Shown here: positions 2,255 through 24,727 of the stretch, piece by piece
Position numbering within the stretch: position 1 is the stretch's first letter
How the letters are laid out: every line of letters starts with the position of its first letter
DNA from: Cystobasidiomycetes sp. EMM_F5
Taxonomy: Eukaryota
Assembly (NCBI GenBank): GCA_051047955.1
Contig: JBPGPT010000044.1
Location: forward strand, 62,001-105,111
Direction: 5' to 3'
Length of the DNA: 43,111 bases
Program-made: the position numbers and the translations under genes
The notes under the pieces: model-generated
The model's database searches: none
Told to the model about the DNA's origin: nothing
The model's input: only the letters and a program-made list of their open reading frames with translations

Positions 2255-4582
2255 ATGCCTAATGTGCTTAGGGCTGTGCTTTGTGGTTTGGCAGCACAGG
2301 TGGTAGCTACTCACGGCTTTCAGCTCAATGGACGAGATGGACGCATTGATCTGTCTGACAACCTCGCCTACCGGTCTCCATCTCTCCACCCAAAACTCAG
2401 CGTTTTGGAAGTCGGACTTGATGACGTACACAAGCGCATGGACGTTGAGCGTTCTGCTATGCAGAAACGCCAAAGCATCATAAACCCATTCGCAAATGGT
2501 ACAAATCCTACAAATGATGTATACAGGGGCGAATTGTCATTTCCTTACGGCGTTGCGTCCGGCGATCCCCTCAACACAAGCATCGTCCTGTGGACTTTGC
2601 CTGTCAAGGTTGACGATGAAGGTCTCTATGGCGGAAATTCATACCCCCCTGTCTGCTTGACCTGTACGTCCTGATCGTTTTGACCGTCACATACGGTTTG
2701 CTGAAAGTCCGTCAATCAAGACCAAGTTTCGTTGACGAGCGCTTTCAATGGCTCTCTGGTCACTAGCGGCAATGTATACACAACGTGAGAAGGGATTTCT
2801 TTGCCTCTTGACGCTAGCGCTGAAGCCGTCCTCAGATATGATGTTCGCTTTGCGACAAAGGTCATTGCAAGCAATCTGCAAGCGTAGTATGTCGGCTTGT
2901 TACACTTATTTCGATTTGAGCTGATACGTTCCAAATGCATAGCACGCCGTACTTTTACAGATTCATTTCTTGCTCCGGAGCAAGCCAAGGAGCTTCAGTT
3001 GTAGGCCAGTTCAAGACTCTGCCCAATCCGGATGATATGCCGGCAGAAATTGGCCTTGCAGTTTTCAGCTGCTCAAATCTACCGTTCGGATATGTGAGTC
3101 TTCGGTGGAAAATATGTATCGCAACTTATTGACGGCATGTTACCGATGAGCTAGTTCAATGCGTACGGAAATGCTGCTAATAATTCTGCACGCCTGGATT
3201 ACTGGCAGCACGTCGGAGATTACATTTACGAGTACGCGAATGGTGCATACGGAGATGGGACAGCCCTTGGACGAGTGCCGCAGCCGCTGCGCGAATGCTC
3301 CAGTCTGGACGATTACCGAGAGTCAGCAATCACGTCAGTCTGTGCAAAGTAATGTACTGATCAGTGTAATTGCAGCCGATATGCTTCGTACCGCTCAGAC
3401 CCTGATCTTCAGAAATTACACCAGCTTCTAGCGGTGCAAGCCGTCTGGGATGATCATGGTATGTGACGATACATCTATGTGCGCTGCGACTATTGATGCT
3501 GTTTCAATCAACAGAGGTCGCAGATCAAGCTTTCAACAACGGAACTGCAGATTCCAATAACACGATTTACGGCGCCGTCAATGGCCTTCAGTTCAGCCAG
3601 CGAAAGGCCAAGTACGTTCCCGACGATAGCATAGTGTTTGCACCGCTGACGGATGTACGTCTCATCTGTACAGTGCTGTCCGCGCCTACTTTGAGTTTCT
3701 CCCTATACGACAAGTCGATACGGATGATTCTTTGCGTATTTGGCGTACGTTCCAGGTCGGAAAACTGTTCGATATGGTGATGTTGGACACCCGGAATTAC
3801 AACCGCTCAATCACCGATTTATACTACAACACGGATATTATCGCAGCTCAGGCGAATAGCTCAGACCGCTCGATGACTGGATTGCCGCAACAGAACTGGT
3901 TCTTCAACCAATTGGACAACTCTCAAGCACGTAACGCTACGTGGAAGCTTGTAATGCAGCAGGTGGTATTCAATCGCGTCAATTATTCGTCAGTAGCTCC
4001 CACAGCATCATTTGACCTGGACGCATGGGCAAGCGTGATACTACATCTTTTCCGTTATCCACGCTGACCTTAAGTGCATTTGTTGGACACCCACAGGAAG
4101 GATACCGGTACCAACGTCGTCAAATAGTCAACCACATCGCTCAGAACAATATCAGCAATGCCGTCATCCTCTCCGGAGATTCGCACGCCAGCTGGGCTTT
4201 CGACTTGACACAAGATGATTACGCTGGATACAATTCAACAACGGGCGCGGGTGCCGTAGGAGTAGAATTTGCTGGGTCTGCTGTGTCTTCACCATCGTCA
4301 TATGGCAAGCTTTCGGATCCCCTATACGTGGCAGTTGCCGCGAACCTTACGAAGAACAACCCCTCCTTGCAATACGCAGAGGGACAATTGCGGGGTTATT
4401 TCGAGCTGCATATCACTCCACAAACAGTCCGCTCCGACTACTATGGCTTCTACGACCAACTCAGCCGCAACTCAAATGTCACAAAGTTGGCCACGTTCTA
4501 TACCGACAGAGGAACTAACAAGCTTCGCAGGCCAATTAATAATGGCACACGGCCTGCATTTGGGTCTGTGCGGGGTTTGTAA
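2255..4582 (+). CDS. phoD: Secreted alkaline phosphatase D (PhoD family); about 9 introns, one GC-AG
   Basis: Signal-peptide-like start MPNVLRAVLCGLAAQVVA. Motifs GVASGDP, FSCSNLPFG, HVGDYIYEY, VWDDHEVAD, MLDTR, DAWEGY and LSGDSHASW appear across the spliced exons. Confidence 0.92.
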
Positions 4583-7728: not shown

Positions 7729-10700
7729 ATGCTGGTGGATGGCACACCGCACACCCGCTCGTCCGTGACGCACACTGCACAGGCTGGAGTCAGCAGCGGG
7801 CTACAGCCAACCCGGTCGAGTGAGCGTCAAGCTGCTGCTCAGAGTCCCGTAGCCAGCACGTCGACAGCAGGCGTAGCAGCCGCGCCAGAACGCAGGCCAT
7901 GGCATCAGAAGAGGCCACAGTTGGTGGGTGGTGTACGTCCTGGAGCGATACTCTCAGAGTCTCGTTGTTGAAGTCGATTTATCAAATCAAACAGAACTGC
8001 GCCCAGTGTGACGGTACGCAGTCGGTCAATGCCCACGGACGCAGTGAAGGTATGGTGTCCTGTCACCAGTGCGGGAGAAGCTGTGAGTGTCGCTGCTTGC
8101 TGTCCCGCGCCGTGCTGAATTGGCCCACTCTCCCAGTCCACCCTTCATGCCTGTCTGTCGAGTCGAAGCGGCTCATCGAGCGAATGCACACTCTTCCGTG
8201 GGCATGTCGAGACTGCAAGACGTGCCAAGTGTGTAAATACAAGGGAAAGGCAGTCGAACGGCAGAGTAATCCGACAGAAACGACGACCGAGCTATATTCG
8301 TGCGACAGGTGCGACAGAGGATGGCACGGTGAATGTCTCGATCCACCACTAGCCAACAGACCTGAAGGTCACTTTGCATGTCCGCTGTGCCGGGAGGAGT
8401 CGCAGAGAAACCGGCAACGAAACAGACAATCTTCCAATACTAACACGCAAGGCGAAAGGGCACCCTCAACATCGCCAAAGAGGCAATCAACCCAGGACTT
8501 TGTACCTCCGCATCTACGCTCACCTCCCTTGGCGCTCCGAAAGCAGATGGACATGCAAAAGGAGGTCGACACGACAAAAGACGTGAAAGCAGGCTTTCTA
8601 TCCCTGCTCGAGGCTGCCGAAGCCATGGACAGTACGCAACTATCCGTCGTCCCGCACACTAGGGCACAACGTACCTCTAACCGCATCTCAAGGAGTCGCG
8701 AAGGGAGTACTCGGAGAGACGACGTGCAGGAAGTGGAAGGAGAGGCTGAAGCAAATGACGATGTGGTCATGGAGACGCCAAAGGGCTCAGAGACGGATCA
8801 GATGGACTCCCTCATTGATCCGCAACTCTTGCCTGCTCGAATTCAGCACAGTCCCGAGCTTCCTATAGACGAATCCGCGTCTCGAGGGAGATCTTCCAAG
8901 CTACCAGATAGGCAAGCGCCGCAGGCGAAACATCCGCATACCCTCAAGTTACGATACGGTCGTAGCCTGGCCGATATAGACCCATCACTTACAAACACCG
9001 CCAGCCCTTCGCCAAAAAAGCGTCGTAGGACTGGGATACTGGCGGAACTAGGGCTCGATGAGGCTTCCGTTGCTGCAACACAAGATGATGTTGAAATGGA
9101 TGAAGATGCCGAGGGCTCTGTCGAAGAAGACGATGCAGATGCAGAGCAGGCGCCGGAGGAGGAACCAGACTCGTTTGTAAATCGTACCGACATGTCAGAT
9201 GCTGATGGAGAGTACGTAGAGGAGGAAGACGATATAGCCAGGCGCGTTTCGTCAAGACCTCAACGCCAATCCGGGCGCTCCCTTCGCAATCAAGACCAAT
9301 CCTACAGCGACTTCTTTCCCGATGTCAATGCTAGCTCCCCACGCAATGGCGTACCCACTACCCTTTCCGGTCGCTCACGTCGACATCCGCCGATTCTATA
9401 CAAGCCAGACGGCGTGCGCATACAACCATCGTCCAAATCGTCTTCTCGACGCGCTCAAAAACTGCCGTTGAGGCCAGCCAACGATGAGGCTTCGTTCGAC
9501 CGGAGCATGAGCATACGAAATGATCGACCCGTGTCTCTGGAACTGGAGGAACCTCGCCAGCCGGAGGATCCCTTCGGCGGGTTTCTGACAGGCCAGGCTG
9601 CAAGTCTGGGAGACAGAGTGCCTGAAGCGGCAGATCGACAATTGTACGAGCAGGTCATTTCTGCATCAGAGCAGACTTTGCTGCAGAATCTCGAATATCA
9701 CCCGCCAGTGACAGCTAACGGTGATGGACCGCTTGGCCATCGACGTCCTAAAAGGGAGGATCTGAACGGCTTCCGCTCGGCGAGTCCTATCAATGCCATG
9801 ACGCGTGGCTTGAAGGACAGCCTGACAACAGCCGAGCCACCTTCGCGTCTTCGCATGCATGACAATAATATGCCCATGCCGGCCGCATCCCATGGATCTC
9901 CGGCTCCTCTGACCAATGGCAGTTTCGTTCCCTCACGAAGCGAGTCTGTTGCGGCTCTAACTCTGCCAGAAGGCGCATACTCTAACATAGCTGCAATCCG
10001 CTTTGGTCAAGAATGGGAGATCAAGACTTGGTATCAAGCACCGTACCCGGAAGAATACGCCAGAGTACCGGATGGCAGGCTGTGGCTATGCGAGTTCTGT
10101 CTACAATACTTTCGCACAGGCTTTACCGCTGGCCGGCATCGCGTGAGTGTACTGACTGGATCACAGCTACACCATCATCTGTCTGACACGACAGTGTCTT
10201 ATTGTTCAGCTCAAGTGCCAGAATCGGCATCCGCCAGGCGATGAGATATACCGCGATGGTAACGTTAGTGTCTGGGAAGTTGATGGCCGGAAGAATAAGG
10301 TATTTACTGTCGTGCTTGGATTAACAAGCATCCTGCCTGACGAGGAAATCAAGATATATTGCCAGAATTTATGCCTTCTTGCAAAGATGTTTCTGGACCA
10401 TAAAACGCTCTACTACGACGTCGAGCCTTTCCTCTTCTATGTCATTACCGAGGGCGATGCGGAAGGCGCGCAATTTGTTGGCTACTTCAGCAAAGAGAAG
10501 CGGAGCCCGACAAATAACGTATCATGCATCATGACTCTGCCCGTGCGGCAAAGGCGAGGATGGGGCAACCTACTCATCGACTTTAGCTACCTGCTGAGCA
10601 AGAAGGAGAAGCGGCTTGGAACGCCAGAAAAACCACTGTCAGACTTAGGTCTGGTTACTTATCGGACTTACTGGACATTGGCCATCTATCGATATTTGCT

Positions 10701-11316: not shown

Positions 11317-13250
11317 ATGCGCAGGACTCTGCTAGCACTGTCGCAGCCTGTAAACACTGGCAGCAGCTCTGGCAGCCATGGCGTCCGAAAGGCGTACAAT
11401 CCATATCGTCCAGAAGTCCCGCTCCCGGCTGCCCCGTTGCGCCGTGCCGTCATCAGGAAGCTCAAATTTGTGACCGAGAGCCATGGGCTGTTAGCGAGCG
11501 ATGGCAGCGTCAGCAGTGCTCATAGCGAGGTGACTCCATCGACTCTTTTGCAAGATGGCCTGCAGACCTCGTACATGGTTGGAGCCGAACCTGGCACCGG
11601 ACAGCCACTGAATCTCAATTCCCATGTTCCAGCCGGTGGTCGTAGCGTTAATATAAACTCCGCTGCTCATACCCTACACTCGTCCTCCTCACACTCTCGT
11701 CATTCCAGTCTAGCAGACCCTTCAGACTCGCAGTCAGACTCCCTTCCACCCAAAAGTATTGGCAGCAGCCGAAACTCTCGTTATAATCACTCGTCTTCAG
11801 CACCTTCCGCCTCGTTGGTATGGCTCCTTGCACTCGCTGCAGCTGCCGCCGGCGGAGGATATTTGTACTCAAGATCCAACTCTTCAGAAAATAACAGTGT
11901 CTCGGCGCAAGTAGCCCGCGACGCAGCATTGTCGAATGAAGTACGTAATCTGCCTGACGCGCGGATATGACTTAGAAAGGCTGATATTGATGTATCCGGC
12001 AGCCGTACAATGCTCAACTCCTGCAACAAATTCTTGCGGATTTCCCGCGGCCGCCGGAGGATGATCCGTCTTTGCCAATGGCTGAGCGCATGGAGACATG
12101 GATCAAATCACTACAGAACCGGATCTGCCAAGCTATTGAGCGGGTTGAAGCGGACGAATGTCATAGCACGACTTCAAAGCAAATACAGCGTGAGCCAGGG
12201 ACCTTTTACAGAGACTCTTGGCTCCGCAAAGAAGGCGGGGAAGGTATTTCCTGCGTATTGCAAAATGGTAGGATATTCGAAAAGAGCGGCGTGAATGTCT
12301 CTGTCGTCTATGGCAAGCTCCCGCCTAGAGCTGTGGAATCGATGACTGCGGATCACGAAGGCAAATTCAAGGTCTGCTCTCGTCCGATCAAATACGATCG
12401 TTGCTGCTGACCACGTATTTTGCTTTCAATATAAACAAATTAGGGATGGTACGACGGGAAAAGCTTGCTGCCGTTTAAAGCGCTTGGCATCAGCTGCGTT
12501 ATGCATCCTCATAATCCAGCTTGTCCGACCGTGCATTTCAACTACCGCTACTTCGAGTGGGCAAATACAATCTTGATCATGCAATGATTGATTAGTGACC
12601 ATATGACCCTCGCGTCCATTGTTTTCAGAGTCGAAGATCCCAAGAATCCTGGACAACCTAAGGCTTGGTGGTTTGGCGGCGGGTCAGATCTGACTCCCTC
12701 ATATCTCTTCCCGGTTGACGCGCAGCACTTTCATACCAGCATAGCTTCGCGATGTACGAACCCAGCCTACTCTTACGCTCGTTTCAAGAAGTGGTGCGAC
12801 GATTACTTCCTGATTAAGCATCGCGGAGAACGGCGAGGTCTGGGCGGTATCTTCTTCGACGACCTGTCTACTGCCCCTGGCGATACGCAAGGTCGGGAAG
12901 ACCTCTTCTCCTGGGTCAAATCATGTGGGGAGGGTTTTGTCGAGAGTTATGTGCCAATCGTACAACGCCGCAAGCACGCAGTTTATACAGCTCGAATGAA
13001 ACAATGGCAACAGCTTCGCCGAGGTAGATATGTCGAGTTCAACCTCGTTTATGATAGAGGAACACAATTTGGATTACGCACGCCCGGTGCACGCATCGAG
13101 AGTATCCTGATGAGCCTGCCGCTCACTGCCCGATGGGAGTACTATGCCAAACTCGGCCAAGATGAGGGTTCTGAAGAGGCGAAGCTATTGCATGTTCTGA
13201 GTACGCCGGCAACGTTGTGGAGCATAGATATGCGGACGAGAAGAAGCTGA
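11317..13250 (+). CDS. HEM13: Oxygen-dependent coproporphyrinogen III oxidase with long N-terminal extension and TM segment; 3 introns
   Basis: Motifs [84 protein letters not shown] and ESILMSLP. Confidence 0.95.
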
Positions 13251-13372: not shown

Positions 13373-16300
13373 CTAAACTCCGGTACTGGCGCGACTTATC
13401 ATATCCTTAATGGACACAGGCCTCCAAGCAGTTCCTACCGCATCCTGAGCGTATATGAGGTCGCCGTGCATATAAATTGTGACACCACTGCGGCCATCGA
13501 CGCCAGGAGAGACGCGGAAAAGAGCCATGCCCGATACAGGATGCGCTTTTCCGGTAGGCATAAACAAGAGATTGTTCTCCGCAACGAGCTCCTCCACCAC
13601 GTTACGAAAAGTAACATCGGGCGCATCTGGGAGCGCCCTGCTCGCTGTCTTTGGTGGAAGATGCCCATTCGCTTTGTCGAGCAAGGTCGATGGAACGCTG
13701 TTATCGGGCTTCTTCAGTCGGTATTTGGCATCCTCACCAAAGGCCATGGCCTGATTCATGAGGTCTAATGCCCTGCTGAATCCTCGCACCACGACCGGCA
13801 TGTCATCATAATTCGCGAAGACCTCCCTCTTCCACCAGGTGTACCACTCTACAACTTGCTCGTAATTGACAGAGGGAGCGATAAGCCATGTATGTAAGGC
13901 ATCCAGAAGTTTCGGAAAGAAGGCAGCTTCGAGAAGTTGGGAGAGCATCGATTCTCGTAACAGGGGTCGCCACGAGAGAACAAGTTGAAGAGGGGCCAGT
14001 TCTTGCTGACGAGGGTTGATCGTGAACCGCTCGCGCAAGTGACTTCCCAGTTGCGGTACAATATGTTGTAAGCAGAGGTTGTCCCATTCAGCTGGTGCAA
14101 TAACATCTCGCCAGGGAGCAAGATCTTCTGGTAATCCATCTTTAGGTCGCCAATTCTTGGGTAGACCGCGCACGCGACGTTTGGCTTCATCAATTAGTGT
14201 ATCAGAGCGAGATGCTGCGTGCTGCAGCCAGGGAAAGACAATATGGTGCAAACTTGTTGAATTCTTGCTCGCGGCTTTCTGACTGGCTCTCGTCGGCACC
14301 CAGTCTGATATGGCTTTGTGGACTTTCGGTAATATCAGCTGGTCCAAGATATTGTCGCTAATGAAGCGGGGTAATAAGCCGGACGCTTTCCAATTCGAGT
14401 ACAGTTCAACAGCGGGTTCGGGTTGCGCTGCAGACCAGTCATTGTTGATGGCCGAACGAATTCTTGGCATCCACATGCTCCACATCATGGTCTCGAAAGC
14501 CGTCATCTGCTTCTCTGGCTGCTTGCCATTTTGTACAGAGCGAGCAGAGCCGTACAGATCGACCTGGAGTGCATGATCTGCATGATTGTCATCCCGTCTT
14601 TGCAGTCGAAAGGCTTTCTTCCAACGCTTCAGGTCGCTTAGATACGCCGTAGGATTCGTGAGCGGATCCCAATCCGCCCATGCGCGCTTCATCTGTCGCA
14701 ACAGACGTCAATCGTAAGATTGCACAGTCGACATACTCTACTTACAGTTGGCGCAATTGCAGAAACCACCACTTCATCAAGCCTTTGTTGCTCAAATTCT
14801 TCCGAAGAGGCAATCGTCAATAGCTCATCGAAGGGGTCGGTGAAGGCCTCCAAGGGTTTCTCCGGAACGTCAAACTGACTTGTCGTGACCATAGAAACTT
14901 TATTGATGGCGGATGTGATGTCCAAGATTTGCTGCAATCTGGCTATCCCTGTAAACGATGTGTCAGCTAAATGCCCCATACCGGCGGTTCAAACGACAAG
15001 CTTACTATCTTCCATGTCGTTCACTATGGCCTTGACCTTTTTGTCCTCTCGATCCAGCCATTTACGCCTGTCTTCAACCGCATGAGCTTCGTGGGCTAAG
15101 TTGTCGAGATCACTTTTAGCAGAATCTGTAATAAGTCTCAGGTTGTCACGAAATTCGGGGATCCGAGTAGCATCGCTGGTCGGCACATCGTGATGATGGG
15201 ACATAGCTGACAGTGCAGATGTTGACAGCTGTTTCCCAGAAAGGTCGGTGATGAGCCCAACACCGCTTGAAGGTCCAGCAGTCGCATTTGCGACAATCTC
15301 TTCGTATGTGAGATGCTGAACCTTTGCTTTTCTAGGTCGCGGCTGCTTCCAAGCTGGCGTCCCGGCTGGCTGCTTTGGCTTCCCTTTGCCCGTACTCTTG
15401 CCCTTGCCACGTCCTGATTTCCGATGTCCGGCATCACTCTCCTCATCATCGTCCGTGACATCCTCGCCGCCGTGGGCTTTCCTTCGTTTTTCCTCGACCT
15501 TGGATTGCTTTGTTCGTTCGGTGAAGCCCTCATAAGCCAAACCCATGCCCTTTGGACGCAGCTTGGACTCGAGGGGAGTTACGATTCCTGTGCCTTCATT
15601 CCCTAACCCTGTCCCTGCAGACCAGCCCATCTTGCTGAGCAGCTTGAAACCATAACCACCTTTTGAGGCCAGACTTGCAAAGTGCTTCTCCTCATCTCTG
15701 GCAAGCTTGACAGGTTTGCGCTGAGCAGATGACACGCCGGGAGTGCCGCTACGGGAAGAAGCTGCTGCGCCTAGGAATGCACGCCTCTCTCTTGATGGAC
15801 CAGGCTCAGGTGTTCCAGAAACAGAAGAAACGTTAGAAGTGGTGGTTTGCGCAGCAGCTTGAGCAGAGGTCTGCGGTGTAAAAGCTTGTGCAGCAGCTCT
15901 TGAAGCACTTCCTATACCTCCCCTTGCTCGTTGTCCGATTGCAGCTTTGTTTGGCTGAGGTTTGGGTTGTTCGGAAAGAGCTCCTGCGAGAAGATCATTG
16001 TTGACCGGTCGATTTCTACCAATACCTCCCGCACCAGGGATCTCCTCCTCTTCCTCCTCGTCTCTGTTTCTTGGGACTCTCGCTCTCGGTCGTTCATCGC
16101 CCGACGAGTCATCGCTGCCTGAGTTTGCATCATCTTCGCTTTCTTGGCCATCTTCGTCTGCTGCGTCGCTTTCAGCCGAGGATGGCGCTTCAGAAGCTAC
16201 TTGTGCTTCAGGTATTGCATCGGCGAGATCCATAGTCTGATTATTTGGGCCATTATCGGAATTAGCAGTTGCAGATGCTGGCACGAAGGCTTGAGTTCTG

Positions 16301-16653
16301 CATGATTATGACACTGCCGTCAGCATTATAGAGCAATTACGAAGACTTCTCGTTCAGCATCCTTACCTCTTCAAAGCCTTGTCGCCTTTAAGCCCACCAT
16401 ACTTTTGACCGGCATCATCATCATTTTGTTCAGCCCAGATGCCATACAGCGCTTCCTCCTTGCCATTGACCCGCCGCCGTTTGTTCTTTCCTTTCCGACC
16501 ATATGGATCGCTGAATCTCAGTCGCTCAGCCCGCGCATCGGGGTCCTCGTCGTCGTCATGGTCCAGCTCGTTGTCGCCGGGATCCTTGTCGTCAGAGCCG
16601 TCAGACGAGTCGAGGTCGTCATCAGAGATGTACTGCTTCCTGCGTCTTCCCAT
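13373..16653 (-). CDS. TFIP11: G-patch/GCFC spliceosome disassembly factor (TFIP11/Spp382/Ntr1); 3 introns
   Basis: TIP_N-like KEEALYGIW motif, G-patch GYGFKLLSKMGWSAGTGLGNEGTGIVTP..RPKGMG, and a GCFC domain (DNILDQLILPKV, INPRQQ, FFPKLLDALHTWL). Confidence 0.9.
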
Positions 16654-21084: not shown

Positions 21085-21404
21085 CTGACGGTGGTTACTT
21101 GCGTCACAGCCGCCGCTGCTTCCAGTTCAGATCCTTCAGTCGCGCACAGAACAGGCGTTGAGCATGAGACTAAGAAATACGCGTAAAGTGCGCGATGTAT
21201 ATGGTGGACCAATTCGTTGTAAAGGAAGCCAATGGAGCGCATAAAGACAGAGAGCGGACACAGAACACCGGGAAAGTATCACGGTTACGGGGTGTCATTA
21301 GCATGTCCATTAGTGTGTGTTGACCATTGCATTGTGGACCGAGATCGTCGCGTGACGGAGATGGTATCGAGTGCTTGACGCGCTTGGTTCCGCACCCATC
21401 ATTC

Positions 21405-21902
21405 ATGAATCGACTTCGGCAATGCTGCTGCTCGGTGTCGTCTGCAATGAACAGACAACCACCAATCCGACGTGTCTTGCCGCCATTGCACCGATCAATG
21501 GCAACAGCTCGCAAGCCAGCCAAAGTCGTCGCGGCTGCTGGTCATGAAGTCGAGGCGCCTACGCTCTCCGTAGGTCTCTACCAGAAGCATAAGACGCTTA
21601 CAACAGAACACTGAAACGGCTTCTTCGCCAGTCGCAGCAGTTTGATACCAGTGCAACGGAGAGCAAAACGAAAGCTCTCACACAAAGAGAACGCGACGAA
21701 TTGTTACTAGCAAAGATGAAGGAGCGCATGTCTCAGGATGGCGATGAGCGTGAGTTGCTCTGCATCGCAAACATCGAGTATACGATGGTCTGACACTCCT
21801 GCTTTATCGCACACGCTTAATCGAACAGTTTGGGAAGACGGAGAACCGGCATCGTCTGGACTGCGAAAGAATGTAAAGGCCAACATGTTTCGTGTCATCT
21901 AA
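21405..21902 (+). CDS. Small (~118 aa) probably mitochondrial protein; exons 21405-21569, 21632-21749 and 21829-21902
   Basis: Canonical introns (GTAGGT..CAG; GTGAGT..CTGAC..CAG) with consistent phases. Arg-rich, acid-free N-terminus. C-terminus ERDELLLAKMKERMSQDGDELWEDGEPASSGLRKNVKANMFRVI*. Confidence 0.75.
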
Positions 21903-22253
21903 TCAGTTCGATGATTTAAAGCTCGGAAGGTCAGCCTTGCCGGAAAGCCCGCTTCAAGGCCTAAGTTGCGCAATAATCGACGCTCCAGGAAGCTCAGTCG
22001 CTGTACACGGTCAGCAATCCTGTTGGGAGAGGGTGAGCAGCGTAGTGCAGGTGCTTGCATGATCATCGACAGTGCACAGAGAAGGAGAATGAGAATCAAG
22101 CAGTCCGGGGCTGTATATGCAGGATTGGCGTTGCATTGCAGACATTGTGACCTCTTTGTGTAGCATATCACACAACAACCTATAGAGTCCCAAGTATCGC
22201 ATGCACGGCCGCATCTTCCTTATGGGAACTGAGAAACCAATGAAGACGAGATT

Positions 22254-23076
22254 TTAGATGAATCCGATCTGCATACAGCAAACGAGGTCAGCTGTGCAGG
22301 AATTGTTGGAATATGAGGACGCTACACACCTTGTTGGCGATGTCCAACGCATCCACTTCCGGTGTTAACCTCACAAAGGCCTTCTTGGATCCGTCAGGGC
22401 TGAGTGGGATAGGAGATACATATCAGCTGCTGTCGTATCGTACAAGTAAGACTACGAGGCAACCCACCGAATGAGAGTGTTGATCTTTGCGGCCTCGACA
22501 TCGTACAATTGCTTTACGGCCTGCTTGATTTGCCTCTTGTTGGACTTCAAGTCGACAATAAATACGAGAGTGTTGTTTTCCTCAATTTTCTTCATGGCAG
22601 TTTCGGTGTTGAGAGGGTGAATCATGACACGGTGAGCGTCCATTCGCGGCGCATGGGGAATGCTCTTTCGCGGGTACCGGGGTGACCGTGACAGGCGGAG
22701 TGTCTTTGGCAGGTGGAAAGTAGTCGACGTTCGCACTTTGCGCAGCGTCTTGCTGGCAGTTCCCTTCAACGCCGCCTTCTTGGCCACCTTGGCCTTTGCA
22801 TCCTGAGGTTTCGCTGCTACTATCCCAAATTTCCCATTTCCCACATCACCACGTCGTGTTTGCGGTAGCAGCAGGTCGTAGTGGCACGCCGAAGGGTATA
22901 TCATAGCCAGCATAGTATCATCATATCACAGTAGCATCGTCGGCAGTAATGTCGTTCATTGTCGTCCAGCATGATACAGGCGACCGGGTCGAAATTTAAA
23001 AGTTGAAGCAGTGGAACAGTCAGCACCATTCGAATGAGTGACGAACAGCACTCATACACTGACCTTTGGGAGCCAT
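22254..23076 (-). CDS. RPL25: 60S ribosomal protein L25/L23a (uL23); 4 exons
   Basis: MAPK|..[85 protein letters not shown]. Introns at ~22820-23063, 22400-22467 and 22269-22329. Confidence 0.97.
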
Positions 23077-23382
23077 GGCGTTTGATTGTGATGGTATGTG
23101 TCAGTCTCCGGTCTCCTTTCCGCGTTTGGGACTCTTCCTTCTCGGAAGAAAATCTCGGGGAAAATCAAACGAGAGATCCCCGCCTCGCTCAAAGAGTTGC
23201 TAAAACATCAGATAACATTGCTACGATGCGTGGTCGGGCTGTCAGCTAATACACATTCCCTCGCCTTGGTTGATGCTCCGCTAAATTAGTCAAACTTAGA
23301 AGCGGGCATATGCAGCTTACATGCTCGCCTTCTGAACTAGACTAGCCATCGAAACAAAGCTCATATACATTAAACCACACTA

Positions 23383-24727
23383 ATGCTGGCAGAAGTGGCT
23401 TGCTTTCTCTTACATGAATTACTGATGACTGGCTCCTTCGCCCCCGTCCCCTCGCCCCTTACGCTTGCCGGCGGCGGGCGCAAACTCCGCTCGAGGGGCA
23501 GGCCGATGTTTCACCCACCGCAGCCAGTCTACTGGACGCTGAGATCCTCTCTTCTTTCTGTTCCGCTTCGTACATACTGTGTATCTGCATCTCGCTTCGA
23601 ATATCGCAGCCCCAGTCACTCCACCACGGATACGCACTTAAAGGTGATCTCAGTACCCCTGCGCAACGTCCATTATTTGGCTGAGTCTCAGCCGTCACAG
23701 ACATACGTCGCAATGTTCACTAAATTGGAGTTATTTACCTGGATCCTCCTGTCTTTTCTGATCATCTCCGCAATCAACTGCCGGTATATCTGGACAGTCC
23801 CGTTTCTTGCCGTCTTGCTGGGAAGGAGCTGGTCGTACCTTGGCAACGAGCTGTTGCCGGGTATATGGAACCAGCCTCAGTCACTCTTTTCAGTATTTTT
23901 CGACGAGTGGTACTGCTGGGATACGATGTGGTTCAACGTGCTGCCTTTTACCGATTACCGCAGCAAGTCGATCCAGGACGCATATCGTCTGGGTGGTCCT
24001 GAGAAGCTACGTCACTACCTGCACTGCGTCATTCACGTCCGCTCTCGCGCCAGCAGGGTGAGAGACTGGATCAGAATTTTCAGACTATGCGCAACATGTC
24101 GACTCTGGCAACGCTGCCGACCATATCAAACATCTCAAATGGATTCGCTATGGCGGCAGAATTTACGAGTTCAATCGACACCTTGAGCCATTCCGACCTG
24201 GCCAATCAGCGCTGGTGGATCCCATAAACAATATCATTGACAGCTTGATCGGAAGCATTGAGAGAAGGTTTCCTGCCGAAGACGATCACCTCCACATGTC
24301 ATCAGACAGTATGCGTCAGACTCTTCGGCCTTATCATGACAAGAATGGGCAGTTGAAGGAGCTACACGCTATGTGCATACGATACCTTACCGTCGTTGCC
24401 ATGTTGGCAACAACTTACTGTCCAGCAACAAGCGCAGAAGCCGACGGCACTGTAGACGCAAGTACTCCGATGACGAGAACAAACAGCGAGGAAAGCGCGC
24501 ACACCCTCGTCGACGAAGCACTTGAAGACTTCAGCTACAGCGTCCAAGTAAGCGGCGAGCTACATCGAGAGCGAAGAATACGCGACGTTGAGAAGCGCCT
24601 GGCAGAGATGGCTCGGAAAAGTGCTATTCTCGAAAAGTACCGGCGTGTTCTGATGCGCGAAACATCGAATCCTATCCAGTGCCTTGGAGATTTACGTAAG
24701 CGTAGATTTTTCCTTCCCGTGGAATGA
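23383..24727 (+). CDS. Hypothetical membrane protein; two ORFs probably joined near 24030-24083, junction unresolved
   Basis: 267-aa ORF with hydrophobic segments (LELFTWILLSFLIISAINCRYIWTVPFLAVLLG) overlaps a second frame that is open from 24062 to 24727. Confidence 0.45.

Follow-up and report, generated by a model that had tools for sequence, protein, structure and literature searches.

A candidate AG-exclusion zone behind a putative distant branch point in the first intron of a fungal uL23 (RPL25) gene

Introduction

AG-exclusion zones have been described in vertebrates for PTB exon 11, GABBR1 exon 23 and alpha-tropomyosin exon 3 (Gooding et al. 2006, PMC1431707). According to the sections of that paper cited here, such a zone carries the branch point and a pyrimidine tract at its 5′ end, AG occurs at normal frequency upstream of it, and closely spaced AGs at its end compete (PMC1431707). 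If the second step of splicing takes the first AG after the branch, AGs would be selected against between a distant branch and its 3′ splice site.

The intron of COF1 is reportedly a yeast case of a branchpoint-distant 3′ splice site, and Meyer and colleagues (2011) are said to have carried out thermosensor work. In S. cerevisiae, RPL25 has a 13-nt first exon and an intron of roughly 400 nt, and the introns of the ribosomal-protein genes RPL30 and RPS14B are autoregulated. Autoregulation is also described for the introns of RPL7B (PMC12311795) and RPL22 (PMC5755908) in the cited parts of those two papers. The distance from branch to 3′ splice site averages 36 nt in S. cerevisiae, and S. pombe splices efficiently below ~30 nt; in the latter species ~40 of ~5250 introns have a spacing of at least 30 nt, and reporters with such a spacing splice poorly, with folding or Sde2/Cactin/Tls1 providing help (PMC9508853, sections on spacing). 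S. cerevisiae introns often carry "downstream stems," as stated in the excerpt drawn on here (PMC12350175). A limited literature collection that was searched for fungi, Cryptococcus and branch point yielded no description of a fungal AG-exclusion zone.

Here we describe intron 1 of a uL23 gene in a window of 43,111 nt, the whole stretch of DNA that was analyzed, from Cystobasidiomycetes sp. EMM_F5 (contig JBPGPT010000044.1, positions 62,001 to 105,111). All coordinates below are those of the window unless another sequence is named.

Results

Gene model of uL23

The uL23 (RPL25/L23a) gene lies on the minus strand, as do all of its features given below, with the ATG at 23076–23074. The precomputed Pfam families PF03939 and PF00276 (Ribosomal_L23eN and Ribosomal_L23) are found in the product of exon 2, and named fungal uL23 proteins are 79% identical to the window protein, the best named match being Kwoniella. 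Exon 1 (23064–23076, ATGGCTCCCAAAG) comprises 13 nt, the ATG and 10 nt more, which code for MAPK and the first base of the following codon. When joined across the junction, this MAPK N-terminus matches both the inferred N-terminus of a relative (L020) and the deposited Kwoniella protein. The 5′ splice site GTCAGT (23058–23063) forms a phase-1 junction that is in frame with each of three tandem acceptors (22814–22821), which read AG/TAG/CAG, or ATAG/TAG/CAG with T22822 included, and place three AGs 3 nt apart. Because all three terminal AGs are in frame for this phase-1 intron, intron 1 is 244, 247 or 250 nt long. Use of the first AG would give M-A-P-K-V-A-A-K-P-Q-D, which equals in length the x-A-A-K-P-Q-D of relatives. 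Since the protein then has the same length as in relatives, we take 22820 as the most likely 3′ end of intron 1, giving an intron of 244 nt from 23063 to 22820.

The remainder of the gene consists of exon 2 (22468–22819 if the first AG is used), intron 2 (22400–22467, 68 nt, with GCTGAT 23 nt upstream of its 3′ splice site), exon 3 (22330–22399), intron 3 (22269–22329, 61 nt, with GCTGAC 19 nt upstream of its 3′ splice site) and the coding part of exon 4 (22254–22268), which was read from the sequence and the contig described next and encodes IGFI and the stop codon TAA. A contig from run X1 that is 100% identical to the window skips 22400–22467, making the joint 22468/22399, and in it 22250–22268 abuts 22330–22399. 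As this contig joins exons 2, 3 and 4, introns 2 and 3 are real and the contig is RNA-like. Exon 1 and intron 1 are covered by no contig of the four coded runs. One contig from run X2 stops at 22818 with one letter unmatched, an end that fits use of the second AG and equally an unspliced or variant molecule, and we make no claim from it. Public ORF calls for uL23 and its relatives (P0001, window 22452–22925; P0002, on the related contig L001; and P0003) are prokaryote-style, and because they begin at an ATG inside intron 1, the deposited proteins have N-termini derived from the intron.

AG-free zone in intron 1

On the transcribed strand, AG occurs in intron 1 at positions 4, 12, 243, 246 and 249 and nowhere else, which corresponds to 23060–59, 23052–51, 22821–20, 22818–17 and 22815–14 in the window. 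Between the second and third of these lies an AG-free zone of 229 nt (22822–23050, on the transcribed strand). With 23% A and 24% G, the zone would be expected to hold ~13 AGs, and the probability that 229 nt contain none was 5.6 × 10−8 under a first-order Markov model of the window and 7 × 10−7 under the zone's own base composition. AG was the sole depleted dinucleotide of the 16, the next lowest being CC with 10 occurrences. Outside the zone AG occurs at normal density: exon 2 has 6.8 per 100 nt, the sequence upstream has 8.9 per 100 nt, and the first 13 nt of intron 1 alone contain two.

The corresponding gap between AGs, 231 nt, is the longest in the window on either strand. As other gaps reach 204 and 173 nt, the window taken alone is suggestive and not conclusive. 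The second-longest AG-free run (21171–21375, minus strand, 204 nt) has two CTAAT motifs near its start and ends at TTTCTTAG; it is apparently intergenic, upstream of a small plus-strand gene ending at 21902, and no gene model fits it. We also ranked the AG-free runs of at least 120 nt in 73 distinct sequences, on both strands, by how many AGs the composition of each would lead one to expect. The orthologous intron in L001, the closest relative found, came first (22 expected), the window zone second (13) and a run in another relative, L009, next (10). The L009 run (2716–3027 of that contig, minus strand) is 309 nt long and lies in an apparently hydrophobic, membrane-protein, pyrimidine-rich coding region, which shows that composition alone can give long AG-free runs.

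Candidate branch point and comparison with short introns

The motif TGCTGAC (23019–23025) is the only NCTRAY in intron 1 and is the candidate distant branch point. Its presumed branch A, at 23020, lies 43 nt past the donor and 200 nt ahead of the first AG, and the AG-free stretch starts 31 nt upstream of it. Directly 3′ of the motif we read a pyrimidine-rich tract of 28 nt (TGTTCCACTGCTTCAACTTTTAAATTTC, 22991–23018), and CTRAY is absent from the last 195 nt of the intron. A weak alternative candidate, GGTGAT (22845–22850), would place the branch A at 22846, which is 26 nt ahead of the first AG; this motif has no C at the position where the branch motifs of the six supported short introns in the window always have one.

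These six introns, 52–79 nt long, each had outside support and made up the comparison set. Introns 2 and 3 of uL23 were supported by the spliced contig, those of the genes for a MYST acetyltransferase, a coproporphyrinogen oxidase and a PhoD protein by Pfam matches that continue across the junction, and that of a small convergent neighboring gene by its L001 ortholog, which reads through without the intron. All six carry a CTGAY motif. The donor-to-branch A distances in the set are 44, 41, 43, 43, 32 and 43 nt, compared with 43 nt in uL23 intron 1, and the distances from branch A to the 3′ splice site are 23, 19, 8, 18, 29 and 35 nt, compared with 200 nt in uL23 intron 1. Because the donor-to-branch spacing in intron 1 is the usual one, its 5′ part would be a normal short-intron module and only its tail abnormal. 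A spacing of 41–44 nt is found in the introns at 10143–10194, 11941–12002, 21750–21828, 22269–22329, 22400–22467 and 22820–23063, and the PhoD intron (4035–4096), with 32 nt, is the exception; this uniformity suggests that the length of the 5′ module is tightly constrained in the introns of this genome. Between branch and 3′ splice site the six short introns have no AG, apart from one located 6 nt past a branch A, and this near-absence fits a first-AG rule in the organism.

Across both strands of the window there are 294 CTRAY motifs, and none is farther from the next AG than the one with its A at 23020 (200 nt, the runner-up having 145). Eight CTRAY motifs precede at least 100 nt without AG, and only that at 23020 has a GTNNGT-type donor upstream at the usual spacing. 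An ORF-bridging intron scan of the window returned 2262 candidates, or 37 under stricter settings that still included evident false positives, and its results are a rough guide only.

The preliminary description of this DNA had reported an intron of ~244 nt where most introns measure ~50–70 nt, and a single consensus branch point, TGCTGAC, ~40 nt past the donor and followed by a pyrimidine tract; our gene model, the six supported introns and the tract reaching to ~22991 bear this out, except that the end it gave, 22814, is the third AG. The AG-free interval it placed from 23050 to 22822, and its estimate that chance would produce such an interval with a probability below 1 × 10−6, held under both null models.

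The best named matches of the window's MYST acetyltransferase are from Ustilaginomycotina (Pseudozyma, Sympodiomycopsis and Parajaminaea), at ~32% identity over a quarter of the query. These matches, together with that of uL23 to Kwoniella, mark the organism as a basidiomycete that has no close sequenced relative in the collections searched. At 13376–16305, on the minus strand, two adjacent ORFs have G-patch and GCFC domains and, taken together, resemble a spliceosome disassembly factor of the TFIP11/Ntr1 type.

Intron 1 in related fungi

A scan of metagenome contigs with the exon 2 protein identified 80 fungal uL23 loci. An intron 1 was inferred in 11 of them; in the other 69 the upstream sequence was too short or the N-terminal exon structure was different or unclear. 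We screened up to 800 nt ahead of the match at each of the 80 loci for AG-free gaps measuring at least 100 nt; five loci have such a gap, and it ends at the acceptor in L001 and L002 only.

L001 is 88% identical to the window in amino acids, and its exon 2 is 75% identical in nucleotides and 51% at third codon positions. The contig starts inside intron 1 and shows neither donor nor branch point. Ahead of the orthologous phase-1 acceptor (CAATAG|CC) it has 304 nt without AG (P ~2 × 10−10), and CTRAY is absent from these 304 nt. The window intron and the L001 intron do not align, with a global score of 1 compared with a shuffle mean of 2.1, and the AG-free state thus recurs in an ortholog that cannot be aligned here. 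Given this replication, it is very unlikely that the AG-free zone is due to chance. The segment L001:1–306 contains one GT where ~16 are expected, and the window intron contains 15. With AG absent and GT nearly absent, both splice-site dinucleotides appear to be avoided in L001, and a first-AG rule leaves the missing GT unexplained.

In the alignment of L001:307–1426 with window 21671–22819, uL23 introns 2 and 3 and the neighboring gene's 79-nt intron (21750–21828) are missing from L001 and intron 1 is kept; synteny with the convergent neighboring gene is conserved. P0003, a second relative at 88% identity known as a protein alone and encoded on a 938-nt contig, also has neither intron 2 nor intron 3 and reads into intron 1. 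L001 may be genomic DNA from a relative with few introns, or else a contig derived from a transcript with intron 1 alone left unspliced.

The ten further relatives rest on a heuristic search for exon 1 and sequence-only models, and represent approximately six or seven independent sequences. Their intron 1 is 265–405 nt long, has CTRAY 6–28 nt ahead of the acceptor and contains 9–27 AGs, with 16–27 expected. A long intron 1 (244–405 nt) is thus common to the window and all 11 relatives examined. Among the 12 sequences compared, the AG-free state appears confined to the two that have no CTRAY near the acceptor, the window and L001. Because the relatives with a proximal CTRAY have normal AG, the loss of AG accompanies that of the proximal branch motif. 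A comparison with related fungi had been put forward as a check in the preliminary description, and this outcome, together with the AG-free stretch of at least 304 nt in L001, the usual donor spacing and the normal AG outside the zone, favors the AG-exclusion layout behind a distant branch that it had proposed.

In eight intron 1 sequences (window, L001, L002, L008, L010, L017, L020 and L023), the 4-mers TGGA, GGAT, GATG and ATGG are over-represented 3–4 times. TGGA was observed 49 times with 11.4 expected and occurs in 8/8, although the signal is weak in the window (TGGA 1, GGAT 1). These 4-mers may represent a class of intronic motif that the sequences share, or they may reflect a compositional bias of intron 1.

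Structure and sequence elements of the spacer

Just upstream of the acceptor are three GGG runs (22840–42, 22833–35 and 22824–26, within 22824–22842). Neither these runs, nor the GAC/GAU richness of the spacer, nor its sequence is present in L001, whose intron ends C/A-rich. The fold of intron 1 has no excess stability relative to shuffles (z = +1.24). A long-range helix of 11 bp is predicted between a 5′ arm (UUUUAAAUUUC, 22991–23001) and a 3′ arm that ends 2 nt short of the first AG (GAAAUUUGGGA, 22823–22833), with pairing probabilities of 0.67–0.90. This helix would shorten the exterior path to 13 nt and bring the first AG to ~22 nt from the branch. In 300 dinucleotide shuffles, 39% did as well, and as the bridging helix is no better than shuffles we keep it as a hypothesis.

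Rfam gave no match up to E = 10 in window 22200–23400 and none up to E = 1 at the loci of seven relatives, so that the non-coding RNA that might have accounted for the spacer, which the preliminary description had asked about, was not seen among known families. A box-C-like ATGATGA is present at intron positions 139–145 with no CTGA (box D) downstream. Tandem Repeats Finder reported one 15-nt repeat in the window intron and one 25-nt repeat, in 2 copies, in the L001 intron, which is rich in GGATG/GAATG-like units. The idea that the spacer itself is a selected regulatory element finds no backing here, given that its sequence, GAC/GAU richness and GGG runs are all absent from L001, its fold is not unusually stable and no Rfam family matches it.

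Discussion

We propose that uL23 intron 1 is a distant-branch-point intron in which an AG-exclusion zone is kept by selection because the 3′ splice site is the first AG after the branch, and we assign this explanation a probability of roughly 70%. The sequence has the features by which such zones are recognized, namely the AG-free run, a candidate branch with its tract at the 5′ end, normal AG outside and retention of the AG-free state in one ortholog. We infer that A23020 serves as the branch, that a first-AG rule operates and that the acceptor at 22820 is used. In this mechanism, an ordinary 5′ module, made up of GTCAGT, GCTGAC with its A 43 nt past the donor and the pyrimidine tract, would form the lariat. 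In the second step the spliceosome would pick the first AG downstream of the branch, 200 nt on at 22821–20, and the next two AGs, 3 and 6 nt beyond it and also in frame, may compete with it. A new AG in the spacer would create a premature 3′ splice site, the mRNA of this essential and highly expressed gene would become longer and in most cases lose its reading frame, and purging of AG-creating mutations would leave the 229-nt stretch free of AG.

This layout seems to be one known from animals, and it would lie far outside the spacings measured in model yeasts. Like the introns described in the cited sections of PMC1431707, uL23 intron 1 is AG-free up to the 3′ splice site, over 229 nt compared with 220–438 nt there, and it shares with them the tract and, in its candidate motif, the branch at the 5′ end, the normal AG outside, a zone kept in an ortholog and close terminal AGs. 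Unlike them, it comes from a fungus whose introns are short and whose CTGAY branch consensus is tight, it lies in a constitutive ribosomal-protein gene where no alternative exon is involved, and its spacer is not pyrimidine-rich. It resembles the yeast branchpoint-distant sites, as far as the cited excerpts describe them, in being fungal, in having a 3′ splice site that would lie far from the branch and in inviting explanations by folding or second-step factors, with the predicted helix reducing the distance to ~22 nt, but the spacing here would be 200 nt and the bridging helix is not above chance. Like the introns of RPL7B and RPL22, it is a long first intron of a gene for a ribosomal protein and could couple splicing to ribosome supply. 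Those introns, in the parts of the two papers relied on, have a conserved protein-bound structure, whereas neither conserved sequence nor conserved structure was found in uL23 intron 1. The GGG located 3–5 nt ahead of the first AG recalls the REPAG 3′ splice sites, and so does the distant CTGAC branch motif, which the study of those sites links to them, yet no fungus is named among the species enriched at alternative exons in the portion of that study considered, and the GGG runs are missing in L001 (PMC6339879). The terminal AGs are similar to NAGNAG tandem acceptors in being 3 nt apart and all in frame, and differ in being three rather than two.

Because S. pombe reporters with a spacing of at least 30 nt splice poorly, a spacing of 200 nt in a highly expressed gene would need help. 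One view of the spacer, which is compatible with the AG-exclusion explanation, is that it is a regulatory device, in which slow ligation or dependence on second-step factors, folding, or uL23 itself would let ribosome demand, stress or temperature decide whether intron 1 is retained or spliced. Such a role would fit an intron 1 that is long in the window and all 11 relatives when the other supported introns are 52–79 nt, and L001 and P0003, which keep intron 1 and lack introns 2 and 3, look as a transcript would if it were spliced in part, with intron 1 retained. It is just as possible, however, that L001 is genomic DNA from an intron-poor relative. The predicted helix, at 0.67–0.90, is like the yeast "downstream stems" in bringing the 3′ splice site to ~22 nt from the branch (excerpts of PMC12350175 and PMC9508853), and GGG runs between a pyrimidine tract and an AG are splicing silencers in animals, according to the cited part of PMC6339879. 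Yet the window and L001 share neither the sequence nor its GGG runs, the z of the fold is +1.24 and 39% of shuffles reach an equally short effective distance, and we therefore consider a regulatory device unlikely. Also doubtful, and bolder, is the idea that the 200-nt tail would be the longest such spacing known in a fungus and would act as a second-step "delay line," in which reliance of exon ligation on folding or second-step factors lets intron-1-retaining transcripts, of which L001 would be one, build up and tune ribosomal-protein output.

Were the proximal GGTGAT used, with its A at 22846, GCTGAC would be a decoy or unused and the AG-free state would have some other cause. Its position 26 nt ahead of the first AG is inside the usual 8–35 nt, but it lacks the C found in the motifs of all six short introns, and its use would leave unexplained why the 200 nt upstream of it are AG-free, why L001 shows such a stretch as well, and why GCTGAC stands at exactly the usual donor spacing; we think this improbable. 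An origin by chance or through base composition, such as descent from a simple repeat that lacked AG, gains something from the AG-free runs of 204 and 173 nt elsewhere in the window, from the 309-nt run in the pyrimidine-rich coding region of L009 and from the GGATG/GAATG-like units and two-copy 25-nt repeat of the L001 intron. The zone is not purine-poor, though, and AG alone is missing from it; P is at most 7 × 10−7 in the window and at most 2 × 10−10 in L001, two orthologous introns that cannot be aligned are AG-free at the same acceptor, and the only repeat in the window intron is the 15-nt one, so that this account has very little left to recommend it. It is just as hard to credit a stable non-coding RNA, such as a snoRNA, that is hosted by the spacer and happens to be AG-free. 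The box-C-like ATGATGA and the length of the intron in all relatives examined would suit such a host, but no box D follows, Rfam matches neither the window interval nor the seven relatives' loci, and neither conserved sequence nor excess structure is present.

We conclude that uL23 intron 1 is a well-supported candidate for a new fungal case of an intron type already known, with a spacing that would be extreme for a fungus. Gene finders built to look for a branch no more than 40 nt from the acceptor will mis-model such introns. If the explanation is true, the intron would be a compact natural substrate for studying how a 3′ splice site is searched for, whether by linear search, folding or second-step factors, and it would mean that the spliceosome of a fungus with short introns can reach a very distant 3′ splice site in one of the most highly expressed genes, with the arrangement retained in a diverged relative.
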